Below are positions 1 to 6,743 of a stretch of DNA of 6,743 nt, in pieces (position 1 is the first letter of the stretch; each line of letters opens with the position of its first letter). The notes beneath the pieces are model-generated. The model saw only the letters and a program-made list of their open reading frames with translations, did not search any database and was not told the DNA's origin. This DNA comes from a virus (taxonomy: Duplodnaviria; Heunggongvirae; Uroviricota; Caudoviricetes). Position numbers and translations under genes: made by a program. Location of the stretch: the IMG/VR virus record IMGVR_UViG_3300029104_000056, positions 1 through 6,743 of that record. One strand, written 5' to 3'.

Positions 1-104
1 CGGAACTGACGGCCGGGGCAGAAAAACGCCGTCGCCGGAAGAAAAAACTGCGGACGGAGCGTGCGGAAGATAATCCATGGACAACATCAGGAGGCTGGTT
101 GTGA
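1..104 (+). CDS. Large terminase subunit, C-terminal fragment (5' end lies outside the window)
   Basis: The frame with codons at 3-5, 6-8 and so on is open from the window edge to TGA 102-104 and uses typical enterobacterial codons (ctg, gaa, aaa, cgc, cgt). It encodes a basic tail, ...AEKRRRRKKKLRTERAEDNPWTTSGGWL*. It sits directly upstream of the W-like and portal genes, as the A gene does in lambda. Too short for confident homology. Confidence 0.4.
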   Translation, partial: ELTAGAEKRRRRKKKLRTERAEDNPWTTSGGWL

Positions 105-313
105 GCACTGAAGAAGTCAGAGAAATGATACAGCGGTACCGTGAAGCGGAAAGGGCGGTACTGGAGGGGAAGTCTGTCACCTTCAACGGGCAGCAACTGA
201 CGCTGGAAAGCCTTTCTCAGATCCGCGCCGGACGTCAGGAGTGGGAACGCAGGCTTGCCGCGATGGAGAACCGCAGACGGGGAAAACCGGGATTTAAACT
301 GGCGAGGTTTTAA
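101..313 (+). CDS. gpW-like head completion / head-tail joining protein
   Basis: The C-terminus ...AAMENRRRGKPGF resembles the lambda gpW C-terminus (...QRRRGPAGFYV as I recall it). Preferred start is GTG 101, preceded by AGGAGG at 89-94 with a 6-nt spacer and overlapping the terminase stop as GTGA; this gives about 70 aa, similar to gpW (68 aa). The ORF track's in-frame ATG at 77 is the alternative start. Stop is TAA 311-313. Confidence 0.7.
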   Translation: MSTEEVREMIQRYREAERAVLEGKSVTFNGQQLTLESLSQIRAGRQEWERRLAAMENRRRGKPGFKLARF

Positions 314-1807
314 TGGCAATTATCGATGATGTGATAGGCGTGTTTTCCCCCGGATGGAAAGCAGCCAGACTGCGTTCAAGGGCATTAATCATGGCCTATG
401 AGGCGGTGAAAACGACCCGGACACATAAAGCCCGGCGGGAAAATCGCTCTGCTGATCAGCTCAGTAAATACGGTGCGGTTTCCCTGCGGGAGCAGGCCCG
501 TTTTCTGGATATCAATCATGACCTGGTGATTGGTGTGTTTGACAAGCTTGAAGAGCGGGTGATTGGTGCCAGGGGAATTATTGTGGAGCCTCAGCCATTA
601 CGAAAAAACGGGGAAATGGCGGCAGAGCTGGCTGCGGATATCCGCCGGTTGTGGGCTGAATGGTCGGTCAGTCCGGATGTGACAGGGCAGTATACCCGTC
701 CCGTGCTTGAGCGTTTACTGCTGCGGACCTGGCTGCGGGATGGTGAAGTGTTTGCGCAGATGGTCAGTGGGGCGGGAAATGGTCTGGAACGGACGGCGGG
801 AGTGCCATTCTGGCTTGAAGCGATGGAGCCGGATTTTGTTCCCATGCGCAGTGATGAATCCGCCGGGCTGAATCAGGGGGTTTTTCTTGATGAGTGGGGA
901 AGACCGAAAAAATATCTGGTTTATAAAAATTATCCGGTCAGCGGCCGGCAGAGTGATACGAAAGAAATCGTTGCCGGAAAAATGATCCACCTGAAGTTCA
1001 CTCGTCGTCTGCATCAGACGCGAGGCTCATCCATGTTATCGGGGGTGCTGATGCGGATCAGTGCCCTTAAGGAGTATGAGGATGCGGAACTGACGGCAGC
1101 GCGTNNNNNNNNNNNNNNNNNNNNNNAAAGGGGACGGGCAGGACTATGAAGATCCTGGGATCAAAGAGACCGAGCGGGAAGTCCATATCACCCCGGGTAT
1201 TATTTATGACGATTTGCGCAAGGGCGAGGATATCGGCATGGTCAAATCTGACCGTCCTAACCCCAATCTTGAAACCTTTCGTAACGGTCAGCTGCGTGCA
1301 GTAGCTGCAGGCAGTCGTCTGAGTTTTTCCAGTGCGGCGCGTAACTATAACGGTACCTACAGTGCCCAGCGGCAGGAGCTGGTCGAGTCCACCGACGGGT
1401 ATCTGATCCTGCAGGACTGTTTTATTGGCGCGGTAACCCGCCCTGTGTACCGGACATGGCTGAATATGGTGGTTGCGGCAGGTCTGCTGAAAATTCCGGC
1501 AGATGTGGAGATGAAAACGCTATATAACGCGACGTATTCCGGTCCGGTGATGCCGTGGATCGATCCGGTTAAGGAAGCTGAAGCCTGGAGAATTCAGATC
1601 CGGGGTGGTGCAGCGACAGAATCCGACTGGGTTCGGGCCGGAGGGCGCAATCCGGATGAGGTCAAACGTCGCCGCAAGGCTGAAATTGATGAAAACAGCA
1701 GACTGGGGCTGGTCTTTGATACTGACCCCGTCAACGATAAAGGAGGAAACAGTGCCGGAACTGAACGACAGCATCAGCGCGACACCGAAAGCCAGCATGA
1801 AGAATAA
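313..1807 (+). CDS. Phage portal protein (interrupted by an N-run at 1105-1126)
   Basis: ATG 313 overlaps the W stop (TAATG) with GCGAGG at 302-307 upstream. A 278-aa ORF runs into the N-run, and coding resumes at 1127 in a different frame through to TAA 1805-1807 (...GGRNPDEVKRRRKAEIDENSRLGLVFDTDPVNDKGG...). Size (about 500 aa) and position between the W-like gene and the prohead protease fit a portal. The frame change across the Ns reflects unknown gap length, not necessarily a real frameshift. Confidence 0.8.
1105..1126. other. Run of 22 N (assembly or masking gap) inside the portal gene
   Basis: Directly visible. The coding frame differs on the two sides, so the true gap length is unknown. 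Confidence 0.95.
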
Positions 1808-3768
1808 ATCCTGGTTCAGGATGCAGGCTGGGGGGCCGGGTGACGCAGATATTTATATTTATGATGAGATTGGTTTCTGGGGCGTTACCGCGAAGCAGTT
1901 TGTCAGCGAACTGAATGCACTTGGTGATATCACCCACATTAATCTCCATATCAATTCACCGGGTGGCGATGTCTTTGAAGGCATCGCCATTTTTAATGCC
2001 CTGAAAAATCAGGGGGCGACCATTACCGTGTATGTGGATGGCGTTGCCGCCTCGATGGCATCCGTGATTGCGATGGCCGGTGATACGGTCATTATGCCGG
2101 AAAATGCCTTCATGATGATCCATAAGCCATGGGGATTCAGTGGCGGGGATGCTGAGGATATGCGCAGTTATGCCGATTTGCTGGATAAAGTCGAATCGGT
2201 ACTGTTGCCAGCCTATGCGCAGAAAACCGGAAAAACCACCGATGAAATTGCCGCCATGCTGGCGGATGAAACCTGGATGTCCGGTGCTGAATGTCTGGCA
2301 CACGGATTTGCTGACCAGGTGACACCCGCTGTTAAGGCAATGGCATGTATTCAGTCAAAACGTACAGAGGAATTTAAAAAGATGCCGGAATCCATTCGAA
2401 ATATGATTACTCCGCCACGCAACAGTGCTCCACGCGTACAGGATGATGGACCTGCAGCCTCCCGGACGCCAGTGCAGGCAGCAGCACCCGTGGTGGATGA
2501 AAACAGCATCCGTGCGCAGGTCCTGGCAGAGCAAAAAGCGCGTGTAAACGGTATTAATGATCTGTTTGCCATGTTTGGCGGGCGTTATCAGTCGTTGCAG
2601 GCTCAGTGTCTTGCCGATCCTGAATGTTCGCTGGAGCAGGCCCGCGAAAAGCTGTTGAACGAGATGGGGCGCGAGTCCACGCCATCCAATAAAAATACCC
2701 CGGCTCATATTTATGCCGGTAACGGTAATTTTGTGGGGGACGGGATCCGCCAGGCGCTGATGGCGCGCGCCGGGTTTGAAAAAACTGAACGTGATAATGT
2801 CTACAACGGGATGACCCTGCGTGAATATGCCCGTATGTCACTGACTGAACGTGGTATTGGTGTTTCCAGTTATAACCCGATGCAGATGGTCGGTGCGGCG
2901 TTCATACACAGTACGTCTGACTTCGGTAATATTCTGCTGGATGTTGCGAACAAAGCCATTCTGCAGGGCTGGGAAGATGCCCCTGAAACCTATGAACAGT
3001 GGACGCGGAAAGGTCAGTTGTCTGATTTTAAAATTGCCCATCGTGTGGGTATGGGGGGCTTCAGTGCTCTGCGTCAGGTGCGTGAAGGGGCAGAATATAA
3101 ATACGTCACCNNNNNNNNNNATGGCACTGGCGACCTATGGCGAGCTGTTCAGTATCACCCGTCAGGCCATTATCAATGATGATCTGAATATGCTGACCGA
3201 TGTCCCGATGAAGCTGGGCCGTGCGGCGAAATCCACTATTGCCGATCTGGTTTATGCCATTCTGACGTCTAACCCGAAAATCTCCACAGATAATGTAAGT
3301 CTGTTCGATAAAGCGAAACATGCAAACGTACTGGAGAGCGCGGCAATGGACGTGGCATCGCTGGATAAAGCCCGCCAGTTGATGCGCGTTCAGAAAGAGG
3401 GTGAGCGTCATCTGAATATTCGTCCTGCGTTCGTACTGGTACCGACGGCGATGGAGTCTGTTGCTAACCAGGTCATTCGCTCCTCAAGTGTCAAGGGGGC
3501 TGACATTAACGCCGGTATTATTAACCCGGTGAAAGATTTTGCGACCGTTATTGCAGAGCCTCGTCTTGATGATAACAGCCAGACCACCTTCTACCTGGCT
3601 GCGTCCAAAGGCTCCGATACGATTGAAGTGGCTTATCTCAACGGTGTGGATACGCCATATATTGATCAGATGGAGGGCTTCAGTGTGGATGGCGTGACAA
3701 CGAAAGTGCGTATTGACGCTGGTGTTGCGCCAGTTGATCACCGCGGCCTGGTGAAATGTACGGCGTAA
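1752..3768 (+). CDS. ClpP-like prohead protease fused to a linker/scaffold-like segment and a major capsid protein domain (interrupted by an N-run at 3111-3120)
   Basis: Start is GTG 1752 with AGGAGG at 1741-1746 and a 5-nt spacer, lying inside the 3' end of the portal gene. The N-terminal domain has ClpP-type motifs: VDGVAASMAS (Ser codon 2052-2054) and MMIHKPWGFSGG (His codon 2121-2123). A Pro/Ala-rich and predicted helical segment follows (about 2400-2700), then a capsid-like C-terminal region ending KCTA with TAA 3766-3768. The frame changes across the 10-N run, but coding sequence resumes immediately at 3121. Confidence 0.8.
3111..3120. other. Run of 10 N (assembly or masking gap) inside the capsid domain
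   Basis: Directly visible. The frame differs on the two sides (codons at 3108-3110 before, 3121-3123 after). Confidence 0.95.
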
Positions 3769-3791
3769 ACGTCGCAGACAACAACTCTGAT

Positions 3792-3811
3792 GGCCCGTAA
3801 GGGCTTTTTTT
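3792..3811 (+). terminator. Putative intrinsic terminator after the protease-capsid gene
   Basis: A short GC stem GCCC(GTAA)GGGC at 3793-3804 is followed by a run of seven T at 3805-3811, 25 nt after the capsid stop. Confidence 0.5.
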
Positions 3812-3822
3812 GTACCTGAAAT

Positions 3823-3841
3823 CAGCCCCTGAACGGGGCTG
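3823..3841 (+). promoter_or_regulatory. Perfect 7-bp hairpin just upstream of the next gene's ribosome-binding site
   Basis: CAGCCCC (3823-3829), loop TGAAC, GGGGCTG (3835-3841). There is no T-run after it. GGAG at 3845-3848 and ATG 3855 follow. Confidence 0.4.
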
Positions 3842-3854
3842 TGCGGAGACAGTT

Positions 3855-4178
3855 ATGGCAAAGAATTTTGTAGAAGAAGGAAAAACGGTGGCGATTGTTG
3901 CAAGTGCAGCCATCAGCAGCGGAGATCTGGTGCAGGTGGGTGATGTTTTTGCGGTGGCGCTGACCGATATTCCACAGGGAGAAACAGGCGACGGCATAAC
4001 CGAAGGTGTGTTTATGCTGCCTAAGCTGAAAACGGATGACATGAAAACGGGTAAGAAGGTTTATCTGAAGTCAGGAAAAGTTCAGCTGACTAACAGCGGC
4101 TCTGATCCGCTGGTCGGGGTTGTCTGGGCAGATGCCGGAACCAGTGCAGAAGAAGTGCCGGTAAAACTCAATGTCTGA
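3855..4178 (+). CDS. Small head-associated protein, DUF2190-like (possible decoration or cement protein)
   Basis: ATG 3855 has GGAG at 3845-3848 with a 6-nt spacer. The 107-aa product MAKNFVEEGKTV...GDGITEGVFMLPK... resembles the DUF2190 proteins found next to capsid genes. The ORF track's upstream ATG at 3810 lies inside the terminator and lacks an RBS. Stop is TGA 4176-4178. Confidence 0.55.
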   Translation: MAKNFVEEGKTVAIVASAAISSGDLVQVGDVFAVALTDIPQGETGDGITEGVFMLPKLKTDDMKTGKKVYLKSGKVQLTNSGSDPLVGVVWADAGTSAEEVPVKLNV

Positions 4179-4446
4179 TCCCTTTTCCCGGCTGGCAGCG
4201 CGTATGGATGCGATCACGGTCAGAAAGATGGGAAAGACAGCCTCGATTAATGATGTCGATATGACTGTGATCCCGGGAGAAACACTGGCAGAGCTGAATG
4301 CTCTGTCCGGACCTGCGGTCTCTCTGGTGGTGTTTTCTTCGGGATACCGCCCACGGCGCGGGGATCGCGTTGTTTATGACGGACAACAATGGACGGTCAC
4401 ACGGCATGAACGTTTTAACGGTAAGCCAATGATCTTTATTGAGTAA
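4171..4446 (+). CDS. gpFII-like head-tail joining protein
   Basis: The 91-aa product has an N-terminus (FSRLAARMDAITVRKMGKTASIN) and an RRGD...W.V.R segment (PRRGDRVVYDGQQWTVTRHE) that parallel lambda gpFII as I recall it. It overlaps the upstream gene by 8 nt. Stop is TAA 4444-4446. Confidence 0.7.
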   Translation: MSDPFSRLAARMDAITVRKMGKTASINDVDMTVIPGETLAELNALSGPAVSLVVFSSGYRPRRGDRVVYDGQQWTVTRHERFNGKPMIFIE

Positions 4447-4457
4447 TGAGGTGTGGG

Positions 4458-5036
4458 ATGAAGGGGCTTGAGAATGCCATCCGCAATCTGAACAGCCTTG
4501 ATACCCGTATGGTGCCACAGGCCAGCGCATGGGCGATAAACCGTGTGGCACAGAAAGCGGTCTCGGTTGCCACCCGGCAGGTTGCCGGGAATACCGTTGC
4601 GGGAGATAACCAGGTGAAAGGGATCCCCCTGAAACTGGTACGTCAGCGTGTCCGGGTGTTTAAAGCCAGTCCGTCAGGAAAAATGACGGCCAGGATCCGC
4701 GTTAACCGGGGCAATCTGCCCGCCATTAAGCTGGGGACAGCCCGGGTCAGACTGGCCCGGCGTGGTGGAAAACTGCAGTACCGTGGCAGTGTGCTGAAGG
4801 TGGGTAAATATCTTTTCCGGGATGCGTTTATTCAGCAACTGGCGAATGGTCGCTGGCATGTGATGCGACGTATTGATGGCAAAAATCGTTACCCCATTGA
4901 TGTGGTGAAAATCCCGCTGTCCGGACCGCTGACACAGGCATTTGAAGATGCCCGCGACCACATCATTGCTGCGGAAATGCCGAAACAGCTGGGGTATGCA
5001 CTGAAACAACAACTGAGGTTATGGCTGACCCGATGA
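4458..5036 (+). CDS. gpZ-like tail completion protein
   Basis: Strong resemblance to lambda gpZ: KGLENAIRNL, WAINRVA, IRVNRGNLPAIKLG, AFIQQLANGRWHVMRRIDGKNRYPIDVVKIP, LGYALKQQLR. Start ATG 4458 is preferred, with GAGG at 4448-4451 and a 6-nt spacer, matching the lambda MAIKGLE start. The in-frame ATG at 4446 (TAATG overlap) is the alternative. Stop is TGA 5034-5036. Confidence 0.85.
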   Translation: MKGLENAIRNLNSLDTRMVPQASAWAINRVAQKAVSVATRQVAGNTVAGDNQVKGIPLKLVRQRVRVFKASPSGKMTARIRVNRGNLPAIKLGTARVRLARRGGKLQYRGSVLKVGKYLFRDAFIQQLANGRWHVMRRIDGKNRYPIDVVKIPLSGPLTQAFEDARDHIIAAEMPKQLGYALKQQLRLWLTR

Positions 5037-5434
5037 ACCGACATACACAAATCCGCCAGGTCGTACTGGCACGCCTTCGGGAACAGTGTGGAGACAGCGC
5101 CACGTTTTTTGACGGGCTTCCGGCATTTGTTGATGCGCAGGAACTGCCTGCCGTGGCGGTGTGGCTGAGTGATGCTCAGTACACCGGAAAAATGACGGAT
5201 GAAGATGACTGGCAGGCTGTTCTGCATATTGCTGTCTTCATCCGGGCACAGGCACCGGATTCAGAGCTGGATATGTGGATGGAGAGCACCATTTTCCCGG
5301 CCCTGAATGATGTACCAGCACTTTCCGGACTCATCGACACCCTGATCCCACTCGGTTTTAACTATCAACGTGATAATGAGATGGCCACCTGGGCGATGGC
5401 GGAAATCACGTACCAGATCACGTACACGAATTAA
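5033..5434 (+). CDS. gpU-like tail terminator protein
   Basis: Strong resemblance to lambda gpU: ATFFDG, ELPAVAVWL, DWQA.LHI.VF..AQ.PDSELD.WMES, ITYQITY. ATG 5033 overlaps the Z stop (ATGA) and aligns best with the lambda N-terminus. The in-frame ATG at 5021 given by the ORF track is the alternative. Stop is TAA 5432-5434. Confidence 0.85.
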   Translation: MNRHTQIRQVVLARLREQCGDSATFFDGLPAFVDAQELPAVAVWLSDAQYTGKMTDEDDWQAVLHIAVFIRAQAPDSELDMWMESTIFPALNDVPALSGLIDTLIPLGFNYQRDNEMATWAMAEITYQITYTN

Positions 5435-5444
5435 GGAGGTGGTA

Positions 5445-6188
5445 ATGACCACACCAAATCCACTGGCAAAAACGAAAGGTGCGGGAACGACGTTCTGGAT
5501 GTATACCGGCAAGGGCGATGCGTTTGTGAACCCTTTATCGGACACTGACTGGCTGCGTCTTGCGATGGTGAAGGATCTGCAACCTGGCGAAATGACCGCT
5601 GATGCAGAAGATGACACTTATCTCGATGATGAAGATGCAGACTGGAAAACGACAACCCAGGGGCAGAAATCAGTCGGTGATACTTCGGCGACGCTGGCCT
5701 GGCGTCCGGGGGACAGCGGGCAGAAAAAACTGGTTCAGTTGTTCGACTCCGGTGAAGTCTGCGCGTTTCGTATCAAATATCCCAACGGTACTGTTGATGT
5801 TTTCCGTGGCTGGCTGAGTTCACTGGGTAAAACCATTGCTTCAAAAGACGTGATGACCCGCACAGTGAAAATCAGCGGTGTGGGGCGTCCGTATCTGGCA
5901 GAGGAAGGCACTGAAACCGTGGGCGTTACCGGGCTGACGGTGGCACCGGCATCTGCCAGTGTAAAAGTGGGAGCAACCACCACGCTGACCTTTACAGTAA
6001 AACCTGACGGAGCCAGTGACAAAGCGATCAGTGTGCATTCGACAGATCCACAGACTGCCACGGTGACCCTGAACGGGCTTGTGGCCACGGTGAAAGGCGT
6101 GAAGCAGGGCAGTGTCAGCATTGTGGGCATGACTTCTGACGGCGATTTTGTGGCAGTGGCTACGGTGGCTGTCAGCGCCGCAGGTTAA
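5445..6188 (+). CDS. gpV-like major tail protein with a C-terminal Ig-like domain
   Basis: AAGGAGGTGG at 5433-5442 precedes ATG 5445. The product is close to lambda gpV: KGAGTT.W.Y.G.GD...NPLSD.DW.RLA.VKDL.PGE.TA, the acidic YLDDEDADW block, PNGTVDVFRGW.SS.GK, TRTVK..GVGRP. The C-terminal part (about 5925-6185) is rich in T/V/S/A with alternating beta-like pattern, as in the gpV Ig-like domain. Stop is TAA 6186-6188. Confidence 0.9.
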   Translation: MTTPNPLAKTKGAGTTFWMYTGKGDAFVNPLSDTDWLRLAMVKDLQPGEMTADAEDDTYLDDEDADWKTTTQGQKSVGDTSATLAWRPGDSGQKKLVQLFDSGEVCAFRIKYPNGTVDVFRGWLSSLGKTIASKDVMTRTVKISGVGRPYLAEEGTETVGVTGLTVAPASASVKVGATTTLTFTVKPDGASDKAISVHSTDPQTATVTLNGLVATVKGVKQGSVSIVGMTSDGDFVAVATVAVSAAG

Positions 6189-6208
6189 CAGGACGATACT
6201 CATCATTT

Positions 6209-6232
6209 GCCCCGGTTATCCGGGGCTTTTTT
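6209..6232 (+). terminator. Intrinsic terminator after the major tail gene
   Basis: Perfect 7-bp GC-rich stem GCCCCGG (6209-6215), loop TTAT, CCGGGGC (6220-6226), followed by TTTTTT at 6227-6232. Confidence 0.7.
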
Positions 6233-6248
6233 GCAGGTGGAGAACATG

Positions 6249-6635
6249 ATGTTTCTGAAACAGGGCACGTTTAATTATGAAAAGCAGTCCGTGGTGCTCA
6301 GTGAGCTGTCCGGGCTGCAGAGAATTGAATATCTGGCGTTTGTTCAGCAGCGAACGGCAAAGTTTGATGCCGAAGAGGGAGAACTGCCGGAGGCTGAACG
6401 ACAGATTGCTTTTCTGCGGATGGGGATGGATATCAATGCCTGGCTGGTTTCCCGCTCACTGTGGAATGCGGAACAGTCTCAGGATGTTGAGACGCTTTGC
6501 GCATCCGTTATTACAACATGGTCGTATGATGCCCTGGGAACGGGGGCGGAGATGGTTCTGTCGCTGAGCGGTATGGGAGCCATTGAGAATGCCGGGGATT
6601 TGGAGCATGAGGTGCTGACGCCGGAAAAGTCCTGA
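6249..6635 (+). CDS. gpG-like tail assembly chaperone
   Basis: The N-terminus MFLK...VVLSELSGLQRIEYLAF parallels lambda gpG (MFLK...TLSELSALQRIEHLAL), and LSLSGM matches RLSGM. GGAG at 6239-6242 is 6 nt from ATG 6249; ATG 6246 is an in-frame alternative. Stop is TGA 6633-6635. Confidence 0.85.
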   Translation: MFLKQGTFNYEKQSVVLSELSGLQRIEYLAFVQQRTAKFDAEEGELPEAERQIAFLRMGMDINAWLVSRSLWNAEQSQDVETLCASVITTWSYDALGTGAEMVLSLSGMGAIENAGDLEHEVLTPEKS

Positions 6636-6743
6636 CGCGGGAAATGCAGTTTGTCATGCGGCTTGCCCGGGAGTTCAGGCGGGCAGACTGGCGGCGGATG
6701 CTGTCGGAAATGTCGGCCACTGAGCTTGGTGAGTGGGGCGATT
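6611..6743 (+). CDS. gpT frame: start of the tail assembly protein, likely expressed as a G-T frameshift fusion (3' end lies outside the window)
   Basis: The -1 frame reads GADAGKVLTREMQFVMRLAREFRRADWRRMLSEMSATELGEWGD and is open to the window edge. It overlaps the last 25 nt of G and sits where T sits in lambda. Confidence 0.6.
6623..6629 (+). promoter_or_regulatory. Candidate -1 frameshift slippery site for the gpG-gpT fusion
   Basis: GGAAAAG read as G GAA AAG in the G frame, placed just before the G stop as lambda's G GGA AAG is. The -1 frame is open only from 6611 (a TGA at 6608-6610 closes it upstream) and runs to the window end. Confidence 0.5.

Follow-up and report, generated by a model that had tools for sequence, protein, structure and literature searches.

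The window, meaning the whole 6,743-nt stretch of viral DNA that was analysed, carries virion genes running from the 3′ end of a large terminase (TerL) gene to a T-like reading frame that leaves the window at its right edge (Table 1). Protein functions were assigned from family membership and position and are to that extent predictions. The gene order is common to mEp460, 1720a-02, Gifsy-2, cdtI, Fels-1, CP-1639, HannyBb and two E. coli chromosomes, and it is kept relative to lambda, as a previous sequence-only reading had stated. Of 5426 complete E. coli genomes, 3898 contain a match to the window, and the matching genomes have a median of 2 and a maximum of 9 such regions. Two N runs, of 22 N (1105-1126) and 10 N (3111-3120), each break one long head ORF. 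The first replaces 30 nt present in the draft contig NEMO01000054 (L004) and the second replaces 21 nt present in a JGI metagenome contig (L011); the unequal lengths are as expected for scaffold gaps. Continuity of both broken ORFs was read from these two identical parental sequences.

Table 1 Positions, strand and supporting evidence for features of the window
Feature	Position	Strand	Evidence and remarks
TerL 3′ end (large terminase, lambda gpA family)	3-104	+	Truncated by window edge
W-like head-tail adaptor, 78 aa from ATG at 77	77-313	+	PHROG 118 'head-tail adaptor', E=8.5e-33
Portal protein, lambda family	313-1807	+	PF05136, E=3.2e-74; PHROGs 21, 537; N-broken at 1105-1126
Tripartite protease/linker/capsid gene, 660-aa product	1797-3768	+	PF00574, PF25209, PHROG 133; N-broken at 3111-3120
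Crossover interval, 65 bp identical in both 'parents'	2331-2395		Stx-type prophage left, mEp460-type phage right
Terminator-like hairpin and T run, between capsid and cement genes	3792-3812	+	mEp460 counterpart annotated rho-independent terminator
Head decoration/cement protein, 107 aa	3855-4178	+	PF09956, E=2.8e-20; PHROG 122 'head decoration', E=5.5e-47
Gifsy-2-family small protein, 91 aa, FII analogue	4171-4446	+	PF13856 'Gifsy-2', E=1.8e-17; PDB 2PP6, E=1e-19
Z-like tail completion protein	4458-5036	+	PF06763, E=1.1e-76; 49.7% to lambda Z, full length, E=1e-50
U-like tail terminator	5021-5434	+	PF06141, E=1.4e-60; 52.7% to lambda U, E=6e-49
V-like major tail tube protein, C-terminal Ig-like (Big_2) domain	5445-6188	+	PF16461, E=4.6e-66; PF02368 at 161-241; 54.5% to lambda V, E=6e-99
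Terminator-like hairpin (7 G-C pairs) and T run, 3′ of V	6209-6232	+	mEp460, same place: annotated rho-independent terminator
G-like tail assembly chaperone	6246-6635	+	PF06894, E=2.3e-39; 33.3% to lambda G, E=1e-14
T-like frame, -1 relative to G, open from 6611	6611-6743	+	Similarity to lambda/Gifsy-2 T; exits window

Head genes

The frame-3 translation of the terminase fragment shares 94% identity with the 1720a-02 TerL C-terminus, and the TerL gene in homologous contigs bears PF05876/PF20454 GpA ATPase/nuclease domains. The adaptor lies between TerL and portal, as lambda gpW does, but falls in another PHROG than gpW (PHROG 75) and has a marginal BLASTP match to it (35% over 34 aa, E=0.055); the mEp460 annotation has a shorter 70-aa form, equivalent to a GTG start at 101. 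The portal had been described as showing no obvious lambda gpB-like blocks, and BLASTP similarity to gpB is indeed low (20.6% over 481 aa, E=2e-4); its Pfam family and both of its PHROGs, which gpB shares, nevertheless make it a distant lambda-type portal and not a non-lambda one.

The fusion product comprises a ClpP-like prohead protease (aa 1-179), a linker or scaffold-like middle part (aa 180-355) and a major capsid protein (aa 356-660). Pfam placed the ClpP-type family at residues 31-176 and PF25209 (Phage_capsid_4) at residues 362-656, confirming the earlier suggestion of a ClpP-type protease fused to the capsid protein. The product matches its PHROG at E=2.4e-241 and aligns over its full length with the fusion proteins of Gifsy-2, mEp460 and 1720a-02, and PGAP labels its homologues 'ClpP-like prohead protease/major capsid protein fusion protein'; the start codon follows the 1720a-02 annotation, and mEp460 and PGAP place it elsewhere. 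The protease reached E=0.02 against lambda gpC, and BLASTP of the window head proteins gave no match to lambda gpE, gpD or FI. Along with the adaptor and portal comparisons, these results uphold the view that the head proteins are unlike those of lambda.

The small protein said to be DUF2190-like and to occupy the place of lambda FI does belong to that family (PF09956, formerly DUF2190 and now 'Phage_cement_2', with homologues still named 'DUF2190 family protein' by PGAP), and it is 99% identical to the mEp460 'head decoration' protein and 61% identical to the Gifsy-2 homologue. Neither BLASTP nor PHROG comparison found similarity to lambda gpD (PHROG 49) or FI (PHROG 92). As a member of a decoration/cement family, the protein probably corresponds in function to gpD, not FI, and no FI equivalent is present in the window. 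A trimeric cement protein sits at the 3-fold axes in Gifsy-2, as in lambda (PMC8538268). The 91-aa protein encoded next is assigned, on position and remote homology, as the counterpart of lambda FII, with a predicted function in head closure/head-tail joining, and as part of the head module. BLASTP with a limit as loose as E≤10 did not connect it to lambda FII, and its match to the lambda FII family PF05354 stayed below threshold (E=0.0018, 19.2 bits; cut-off 26); in the reverse comparison, lambda FII matched PHROG 153, to which the window protein belongs, at E=3.9e-7.

Tail genes and the onset of lambda similarity

BLASTP of the Z-, U-, V- and G-like proteins showed them to be lambda-like over their full length (Table 1), in agreement with the earlier view. 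The T-like -1 frame reads AGKVLTREMQFVMRLAREF...; over 36 aa it matches lambda T at 50% identity (E=2e-11), its identity to Gifsy-2 T is 73%, and a putative G-T frameshift site, GGAAAAG, is located at 6623-6629 (lambda counterpart GGGAAAG). The lambda-like block had been proposed to extend from FII to T. This description fits Z, U, V, G and T; as the FII-like protein lacks a BLASTP match to lambda FII, the block begins at Z. At the FII|Z gene junction (4446-4458), protein identity to lambda jumps from undetectable to 49.7% from Z residue 1. Comparison with lambda by blastn gave HSPs in Z, U and the N-domain of V, and none for any segment of 101-4446. The step is old, is common to the whole Gifsy-2/Fels-1/cdtI/mEp460/Stx-type family and is not particular to the window.

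The sequence-only reading had instead placed a recombination joint at about 3770-4170, from the capsid gene to the FII-like gene, where a non-lambda head would meet a lambda-like FII-to-T block. Megablast similarity to Stx-type phages does stop at 3872, nucleotide identity to the Stx-type lineage, about 70% in the C-part of the capsid, is partial or lost across the cement and FII genes, and 3769-3854 is non-coding and contains the terminator-like hairpin. However, Stx-type identity falls off gradually, beginning at 2396 rather than 3770, the cement and FII-like genes are of the Gifsy-2 family and not lambda-like, and mEp460, cdtI, HannyBb and L011 are 95-100% identical on either side, making a joint at this location highly improbable. 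L011 (100%) and mEp460 (98-100%) match the window throughout 2331-6743, and a single reference is therefore equally similar on both sides of 3770-4170, with no joint between. The broader proposal of lambdoid mosaicism holds, in that a non-lambda head is joined to a lambda-type tail, a usual outcome of such mosaicism, and their relationships are incongruent; the position proposed for the joint fails.

From this incongruence between head and tail gene relationships, assessed by pairwise identities among four or five lineages, we infer that lambdoid phages exchanged head and tail modules long ago, producing the contrast between head and tail, and that a very large family has inherited the combination. 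The head proteins of the window, the Stx-type phage 1720a-02 and Gifsy-2 cluster at 61-99% amino acid identity, with lambda far outside (≤24%). For Z, identity is 49.7-54% between the window and lambda, 42% between the window and Gifsy-2 and 36% between 1720a-02 and Gifsy-2; for V, 1720a-02 is 74-75% identical to lambda versus 58% to the window. Vertical descent alone from a common lambdoid ancestor, with head genes diverging much faster than tail genes, is an unlikely account. The portal, protease superfamily, FII analogue and terminase still have detectable remote lambda homologues in unchanged order, which makes a common ancestral layout plausible, but the Z and V relationships are incongruent and not merely rate-scaled, the head proteins are always far nearer to Gifsy-2 (61-86%) than to lambda, and the capsid and decoration families differ from those of gpE and gpD. 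Head genes and tail genes of lambdoid phages are also described as separate co-transfer modules (PMC9836094), which likewise argues for module exchange.

The junction at 2331-2395

The sole recent, sharp joint in the window is located at 2331-2395, between two Gifsy-2-type head modules, and corresponds to codons 179-200 of the tripartite gene, directly past the ClpP domain; the sequence-only reading had not noticed it. Positions 1-2395 have no mismatches to the Stx-type L004, with the first mismatch at 2396. Positions 2331-6743 have no mismatches to L011 save at 3123, beside the N gap, and the last mismatch on the left side is at 2330. Informative sites relative to 1720a-02 (S) and mEp460 (M) change from 70 S : 1 M to 403 M : 1 S. 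The joint can be attributed either to recent homologous recombination between two related prophages or to an assembler path switch over the shared 65 bp. The exact combination seen in the window was in none of the collections searched, so the window can be taken only provisionally as a real molecule.

A non-biological origin, in which the assembler fused two co-occurring Gifsy-2-type prophages over the 65-bp identity in a short-read scaffold, is given slightly less than an even chance. Each half is identical to an independent database sequence up to the shared 65 bp, save base 3123, and the N runs resemble scaffold gaps in their departure from the true lengths. A 90-nt probe across the junction found no match in 185,579 representative genomes or in 241 million metagenome records, and among complete E. 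coli genomes no full-length match to 1830-2830 exceeded 93.3%. Contigs with the exact W-like protein stay Stx-type throughout downstream, the contig with the exact G protein stays mEp460-type throughout upstream, and the multiple such regions in matching E. coli genomes are a classic cause of misassembly. Against this, database absence is weak evidence, since even an L004-type 50-mer was missing from three contig collections. Co-resident lambdoid prophages commonly recombine homologously, for which 65 bp of identity suffices, the reading frame is preserved across the junction, leaving the hybrid protein intact, and related phages display natural domain-level mosaicism at the same site, the mEp460 protease being 91% identical to that of 1720a-02 and its capsid 87% identical to that of Gifsy-2.

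Overall interpretation and known systems

The best explanation, with a probability of about 0.85 for the whole reading, is that the window comes from an E. coli lambdoid phage or prophage of the Gifsy-2/cdtI/mEp460 type and covers part of its late (virion) operon. A head module built unlike that of lambda (C/Nu3, D, E, FI, FII) precedes a lambda-type tail module (Z, U, V, G, and G-T through a putative -1 frameshift). The head module comprises the W-like adaptor, the distant lambda-family portal, the tripartite gene product (ClpP-like protease, scaffold-like linker and a capsid protein predicted to have the HK97 fold), a trimeric-type cement/decoration protein and the Gifsy-2-family FII analogue. 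Such an architecture, a non-lambda head with a lambda-like tail, is an ordinary, well-described and already known kind of lambdoid prophage, and the Gifsy-2 and Fels-1 records already name their tail genes 'Lambda gpZ/U/V/G/T homolog'.

Lambda (NC_001416) and the window are alike in the order of functions, the Pfam/PHROG families of portal, Z, U, V and G, and the G-T frameshift arrangement. They differ in that lambda has separate C/Nu3 (S49 peptidase and scaffold), D, E and FI genes, whereas the window has one ClpP-protease/scaffold/capsid gene and no FI; the cement gene lies 3′ of the capsid gene in the window and before it in lambda; adaptor, capsid and decoration proteins are from different families; and nucleotide similarity is absent left of Z. 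Work on the 'tripartite capsid gene' has had Gifsy-2 (NC_010393) as its prototype (Effantin et al. 2010, Virology 402:355, as cited in PMC12315714 and PMC8538268). The Gifsy-2 layout is that of the window: terminase, adaptor, portal, ClpP-protease/scaffold/capsid fusion, cement, PF13856 protein (structure 2PP6) and homologues of lambda gpZ/U/V/G/T/H. The capsid domain is 86% and the protease 61% identical, while the cement, FII analogue, Z, U, V and G proteins share 42-68% amino acid identity; the Gifsy-2 fusion protein is longer (696 versus 660 aa), and Gifsy-2 is a Salmonella phage, from another host genus than that of the window.

The Stx-type lambdoid group (Escherichia phage 1720a-02 (KF030445), VT1-Sakai, CP-1639 and L004) shares the gene order and the Gifsy-2-type head. 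Identity over 1-2395 is 100% for L004 and 96-99% for 1720a-02, but from 2396 it is only 70-81% in scaffold/capsid and weak or none further on, and the Stx-type V, T and H proteins are nearer to those of lambda (74-75%, 73% and 82% amino acid identity) than those of the window are. Phages mEp460 (NC_019716), cdtI (NC_009514), phi458, Ayreon and HannyBb have the gene order of the window throughout, and mEp460 has terminator-like sites as in the window. The mEp460/cdtI group is only 71-86% identical to the left 2330 bases (TerL end, adaptor, portal and ClpP domain), where the window is Stx-type, but is 96-100% identical at the nucleotide level to 2396-6743 (scaffold, capsid, cement, FII analogue, Z, U, V and G), with proteins from cement to G 94.6-100% identical to those of the window.

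Gene content and head module

The plus strand of the window is a single unbroken run of virion genes from the TerL end to the start of T, and the ORFs opposite them are shadow frames of the kind common where the coding strand is GC-rich. GC skew was above zero in all 400-nt windows along the coding strand. No Rfam families or tRNA were found in the window by Rfam and tRNA scans, and Chi sites were absent from both strands. There were 0 matches to sigma-70-like promoters on either strand, where shuffled sequences are expected to give 4.8 ± 1.9, consistent with a position inside a long late operon. Two terminator-like hairpins with T runs lie within the operon, at 3792-3812 (after the capsid gene) and 6209-6232 (after V). 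Both sites are annotated as rho-independent terminators in phage mEp460, and the hairpins presumably adjust the amounts of the abundant capsid and tube products under Q-type antitermination.

Genes of the window, their assignment, and BLASTP comparison of their products with lambda proteins
Gene	Position	Strand	Basis or family	BLASTP against lambda
Large terminase, last 33 codons	3-104	+	TerL, lambda gpA family	
W-like head-tail adaptor	77-313	+	PHROG 118 'head-tail adaptor'	E=0.055
Portal gene	313-1807	+	PF05136; crossed by N run 1105-1126	gpB, 20.6% over 481 aa, E=2e-4
Protease/scaffold/capsid fusion gene, 660 codons	1797-3768	+	PF00574 and PF25209; crossed by N run 3111-3120	Protease with gpC, E=0.02
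Cement/decoration gene, 107 aa	3855-4178	+	PF09956	
FII-position gene, 91 aa	4171-4446	+	PF13856	
Z	4458-5036	+	PF06763	Z, 49.7% identity, E=1e-50
U	5021-5434	+	PF06141	U, 52.7%, E=6e-49
V, with C-terminal Big_2 domain 5901-6188	5445-6188	+	PF16461	V, 54.5%, E=6e-99
G	6246-6635	+	PF06894	G, 33.3%, E=1e-14
Start of T, -1 frame, open from 6611, cut by window end	6611-6743	+	T homologue in translation	

Pfam profiles placed PF00574 at residues 31-176 and PF25209 at residues 362-656 of the single fusion product, confirming the sequence-only reading that a ClpP-type protease is fused to the capsid protein; the protease is on the N-terminal side. The reading frame is broken solely by the 10-N gap, which corresponds to 21 nt (7 codons) in an identical JGI contig, Ga0169580_068. 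Residues 180-355 are 100% identical to the same segment of mEp460, 78% to that of the Stx-type phage 1720a-02 and 52% to that of Gifsy-2 by alignment; they form the predicted linker or scaffold-like middle of the protein, in keeping with the about 180-200 residues expected of the Gifsy-2 type. The small protein described earlier as DUF2190-like is a member of PF09956 (E=2.8e-20), a family formerly called DUF2190 and now 'Phage cement protein', and of PHROG 122 'head decoration'. The FII-position protein matches PF13856 'Gifsy-2' (E=1.8e-17) and PDB 2PP6 (E=1e-19), and Gifsy-2 itself has a PF09956 gene followed by a PF13856 gene, as in the window. For Gifsy-2, the literature (Effantin et al. 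2010, as cited in PMC12315714 and PMC8538268) has the mature capsid protein freed by autoproteolysis and the decorated capsid with T=7. Because Gifsy-2 has a trimeric cement protein at the 3-fold axes, as in lambda (PMC8538268), the PF09956 gene was read as a gpD analogue and not as an FI analogue. With a protease-capsid fusion gene, a linker segment and downstream PF09956 and PF13856 genes all found, the head module has the Gifsy-2 layout.

Family membership and the literature together suggest a route of virion assembly. The portal would nucleate a procapsid made from the fusion protein, and the N-terminal ClpP-like domain would then cut away both itself and the scaffold-like middle, so that the HK97-fold capsid domain remains. 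Following expansion, the PF09956 protein would bind as cement at the 3-fold positions, and the W-like adaptor and the PF13856 FII analogue would close the filled head and give a docking surface for the tail. The tail would be built separately. V would form its tube and display an Ig-like domain on the surface, U would terminate the tail and Z complete it, and G and the frameshift product G-T would act as tape-measure chaperones.

Similarity of head and tail genes to lambda

Each window protein was compared by BLASTP with the full lambda set from Nu1 through M. Z, U, V and G matched their lambda counterparts at 33.3-54.5% identity, whereas similarity of the head proteins was weak or undetectable, the capsid domain, cement and FII-position proteins giving no match to gpE, gpD/FI and FII, respectively, even at E<=10. 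At the nucleotide level, no segment of 101-4446 gave a blastn HSP with lambda; Z gave one over part of its length (73%), and so did U (67%) and the V N-domain (68%). The contrast between head and tail, which had been noticed previously, is real and far beyond chance, and similarity to lambda starts at Z, that is, at the FII|Z boundary. The tail proteins scored far over the Pfam cut-offs (PF06763, 257 bits; PF06141, 204; PF16461, 221; PF06894, 134), and these homologues of Z, U, V and G, in lambda order and above curated thresholds, argue for a lambda-type tail module. The Ig-like domain of V is without nucleotide similarity to lambda, unlike the V N-domain, and in Escherichia coli RM11911 it is 74% identical to that of the window, against 89% for the N-domain. 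This tail-tube decoration domain appears to have been exchanged or to be diverging separately.

The putative G-T heptamer is GGAAAAG (G GAA AAG; 6620-6635 region), two codons upstream of the G stop, compared with GGGAAAG (G GGA AAG) in lambda. The -1 frame from this heptamer reads AGKVLTREMQFVMRLAREF..., and its residues from 7 onward line up with the start annotated for lambda T (VFDGELSFALKLAREM...). A T homologue truncated by the window end is accordingly predicted in the -1 frame, entered at a putative slippery site, whereas T is annotated in mEp460 as a separate ATG-initiated gene.

Lambda gpC is annotated as an S49 peptidase, in contrast to the capsid-fused, ClpP-type protease of the window (PF00574), and the two cross-hit weakly (PHROGs 53/133). 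Lambda gpE belongs to PHROGs 6020/29 and gpD to PHROG 49, compared with PF25209/PHROG 133 for the window capsid and PF09956/PHROG 122 for its decoration protein, and no counterpart of FI (PHROG 92) was found among the window proteins by BLASTP or PHROG profiles. As judged from these families, the window lacks the lambda head set (separate S49 C/Nu3 and gpE capsid, gpD and FI) and shares with lambda a portal of the same family. The portal matches the lambda-family model PF05136 (E=3.2e-74) and has PHROGs 21/537 in common with gpB, at 20.6% identity only. It had been described as showing no lambda-like blocks, which is correct by eye, but the profiles do not support calling it non-lambda.

The same reading had the FII gene resembling lambda in long conserved blocks, and this did not survive comparison. 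Besides giving no BLASTP match to FII, the FII-position protein scored below the curated threshold of PF05354 Phage_attach (E=0.0018, 19.2 bits, cut-off 26); in the reverse direction, a profile search with lambda FII reached PHROG 153, to which the window protein belongs, at 3.9e-7. The protein may be a remote FII homologue, outside PF05354 by the curated threshold, and its position, its size and the weak profile links that run both ways with lambda FII indicate a head-closure or head-tail joining protein. The names that databases give its family ('ATP-binding sugar transporter from pro-phage' in Pfam, 'DNA breaking-rejoining protein' in PGAP and 'minor tail protein' in PHROG) mislead and should not be trusted at face value. 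A boundary at FII|Z means that the head takes the cement and FII-like genes along with it.

A recombination joint had been placed at about 3770-4170, where the lambda-like block was thought to begin. Megablast against 50,697 phage records showed that mEp460, phi458, cdtI, Ayreon and others match 1183-6743 in one piece at about 95%. Identity to mEp460 is 96-100% in every 150-nt window starting from 2326 through 6376, with no change across this interval, and identity to Ga0169580_068 is likewise continuous across it, so that head and tail genes are comparably similar there to one reference. This is the outcome that the sequence-only reading had named as refuting its proposal, and no joint is present in the interval. 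What stands is head/tail modularity of the lambdoid type; the joint itself was off by one gene, and it is ancient and family-wide.

A junction within the protease-capsid fusion gene

The left 2330 bases of the window are 71-86% identical to the mEp460 group, 96-99% to 1720a-02 and 100% to NEMO01000054, a draft Stx-type contig. At sites telling mEp460 from 1720a-02, the window follows the Stx type at 70/73 up to 2340 and mEp460 at 403/410 from 2341 on, the informative-site switch falling between 2330 and 2334. Exact-protein look-ups recovered NEMO01000054, which has 0 mismatches to window positions 1-2395 and the first at 2396, and the mEp460-type contig Ga0169580_068, which has 0 mismatches to 2331-6743 except at 3123, with its last left mismatch at 2330. 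Joined at the 65 bases that they have in common, 2331-2395, these two parents thus make up the window exactly. This is the sole sharp joint in the window, and it went unnoticed in the sequence-only reading. It corresponds to codons 179-200, a conserved '...PAVKAMACIQSKRTEEFKKMPESI...' island between the ClpP domain and the hypervariable Pro/Ala-rich linker. Both parents have Gifsy-2-type heads, so the exchange is within one head type and is not a head/tail joint.

The two N runs lie on either side of this junction. In the portal gene, 22 N replace 30 nt (ATTGCTGCGGCGCTGGGACTGTATATCCGT in NEMO01000054 and 1720a-02), and in the fusion gene 10 N replace 21 nt (ACCGGAGATAAACAGGCCACT in Ga0169580_068 and mEp460), both shifting the apparent reading frame. 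They look like scaffold gaps and not same-length masks. The idea that they hide a special motif was rejected, as the replaced parental sequences are ordinary coding sequence. An exact-protein look-up with the N-interrupted portal ORF gave no match. Base 3123, the sole difference from Ga0169580_068 over 2331-6743, is G in place of T, which turns ATT (Ile) into ATG (Met). The second N run is three bases away, and errors are common at such contig ends.

The composite can be attributed either to a real exchange in vivo, of very recent date, between two Gifsy-2-type prophages residing together, to which we assign a probability of about 0.45, or to chimeric assembly, the odds of which we put a little short of even. 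The 65 bp of identity in a conserved island are a normal substrate for recombination, and the reading frame is preserved over the junction, but each half keeps perfect identity to its parent as far as the junction, N-run lengths differ from the replaced sequence as scaffold gaps do, and the lone T-to-G change at 3123 adjoins a gap, all of which favor an assembly origin. Database searches lean the same way: a 90-nt probe across the junction (2321-2410) was not found in genome and metagenome collections, complete E. coli genomes reach 93.3% at most across 1830-2830, the sequence stays Stx-type onward in every contig that has the exact W-like protein, and one contig with the exact G protein is mEp460-type upstream. 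A 50-nt probe (2301-2350), also contained in NEMO01000054, was not found in the contig collections, so neither the window nor NEMO01000054-type sequence is present there. Material for misassembly would be at hand, since such regions number 2 (median), and at most 9, in matching E. coli genomes.

Recombination, on the other hand, has precedents in the family. The protease domain of mEp460 is 91% identical to that of 1720a-02 and 63% to that of Gifsy-2, whereas for the capsid domain of mEp460 the values are 71% to 1720a-02 and 87% to Gifsy-2. This discordance, which coincides with the junction, suggests that fusion genes of the family have repeatedly undergone exchange in the stretch that follows the ClpP domain. 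Other local patches are also seen, among them HannyBb Z, at 83% between neighbors at 98-100%, and the V Ig-like domain of RM11911. If the crossover is genuine, the conserved island would be a preferred intragenic exchange point, and in the hybrid polyprotein a ClpP protease domain of Stx type would have to process a heterologous scaffold-capsid of the mEp460/Gifsy-2 type. A two-parent composite with N gaps nevertheless calls for caution over possible chimeric assembly before evolutionary conclusions are drawn. The exact composite is the one new fact here, of minor biological interest if real and a caution flag if an artefact.

Probable module exchange and comparison with known phages

The same gene order, including the cement and PF13856 genes followed by Z-U-V-G-T, is found in mEp460, 1720a-02, Gifsy-2, cdtI, Fels-1, CP-1639, HannyBb and two E. 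coli chromosomes, and the window has a match in 3898 of the 5426 complete E. coli genomes. CP-1639 carries IS629 within its U gene, and HannyBb Z, 83% identical to the window between flanking genes at 98-100%, is a one-gene patch. For adaptor, portal, protease and capsid, the window, Stx-type and Gifsy-2 lineages share 43-100% amino acid identity, with lambda far lower; for portal, protease and capsid the values are 61-100% among the three vs <=24% to lambda. The tail proteins gave a different pattern. In Z, lambda is 54% identical to the window and 57% to 1720a-02, compared with 42% and 36%, respectively, for Gifsy-2; in U, the four lineages are about equidistant (48-54%); and in V, T and H, 1720a-02 is 74-82% identical to lambda vs 24-58% to the window lineage. 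Rate differences alone cannot yield such incongruent identities but reticulation can, and the head/tail contrast with lambda is probably an old module exchange.

The main value of these results is correct annotation, and little beyond. Head genes and tail genes of lambdoid phages are separate co-transfer modules (PMC9836094). A Gifsy-2-type head with a lambda-type tail is already described and counts as one of the most widespread structural modules of E. coli and Salmonella prophages; the Gifsy-2-type architecture is already named by the NCBI annotation pipeline, and the tail genes in the GenBank records of Gifsy-2 and Fels-1 already carry the name 'Lambda gpZ/U/V/G/T homolog'.
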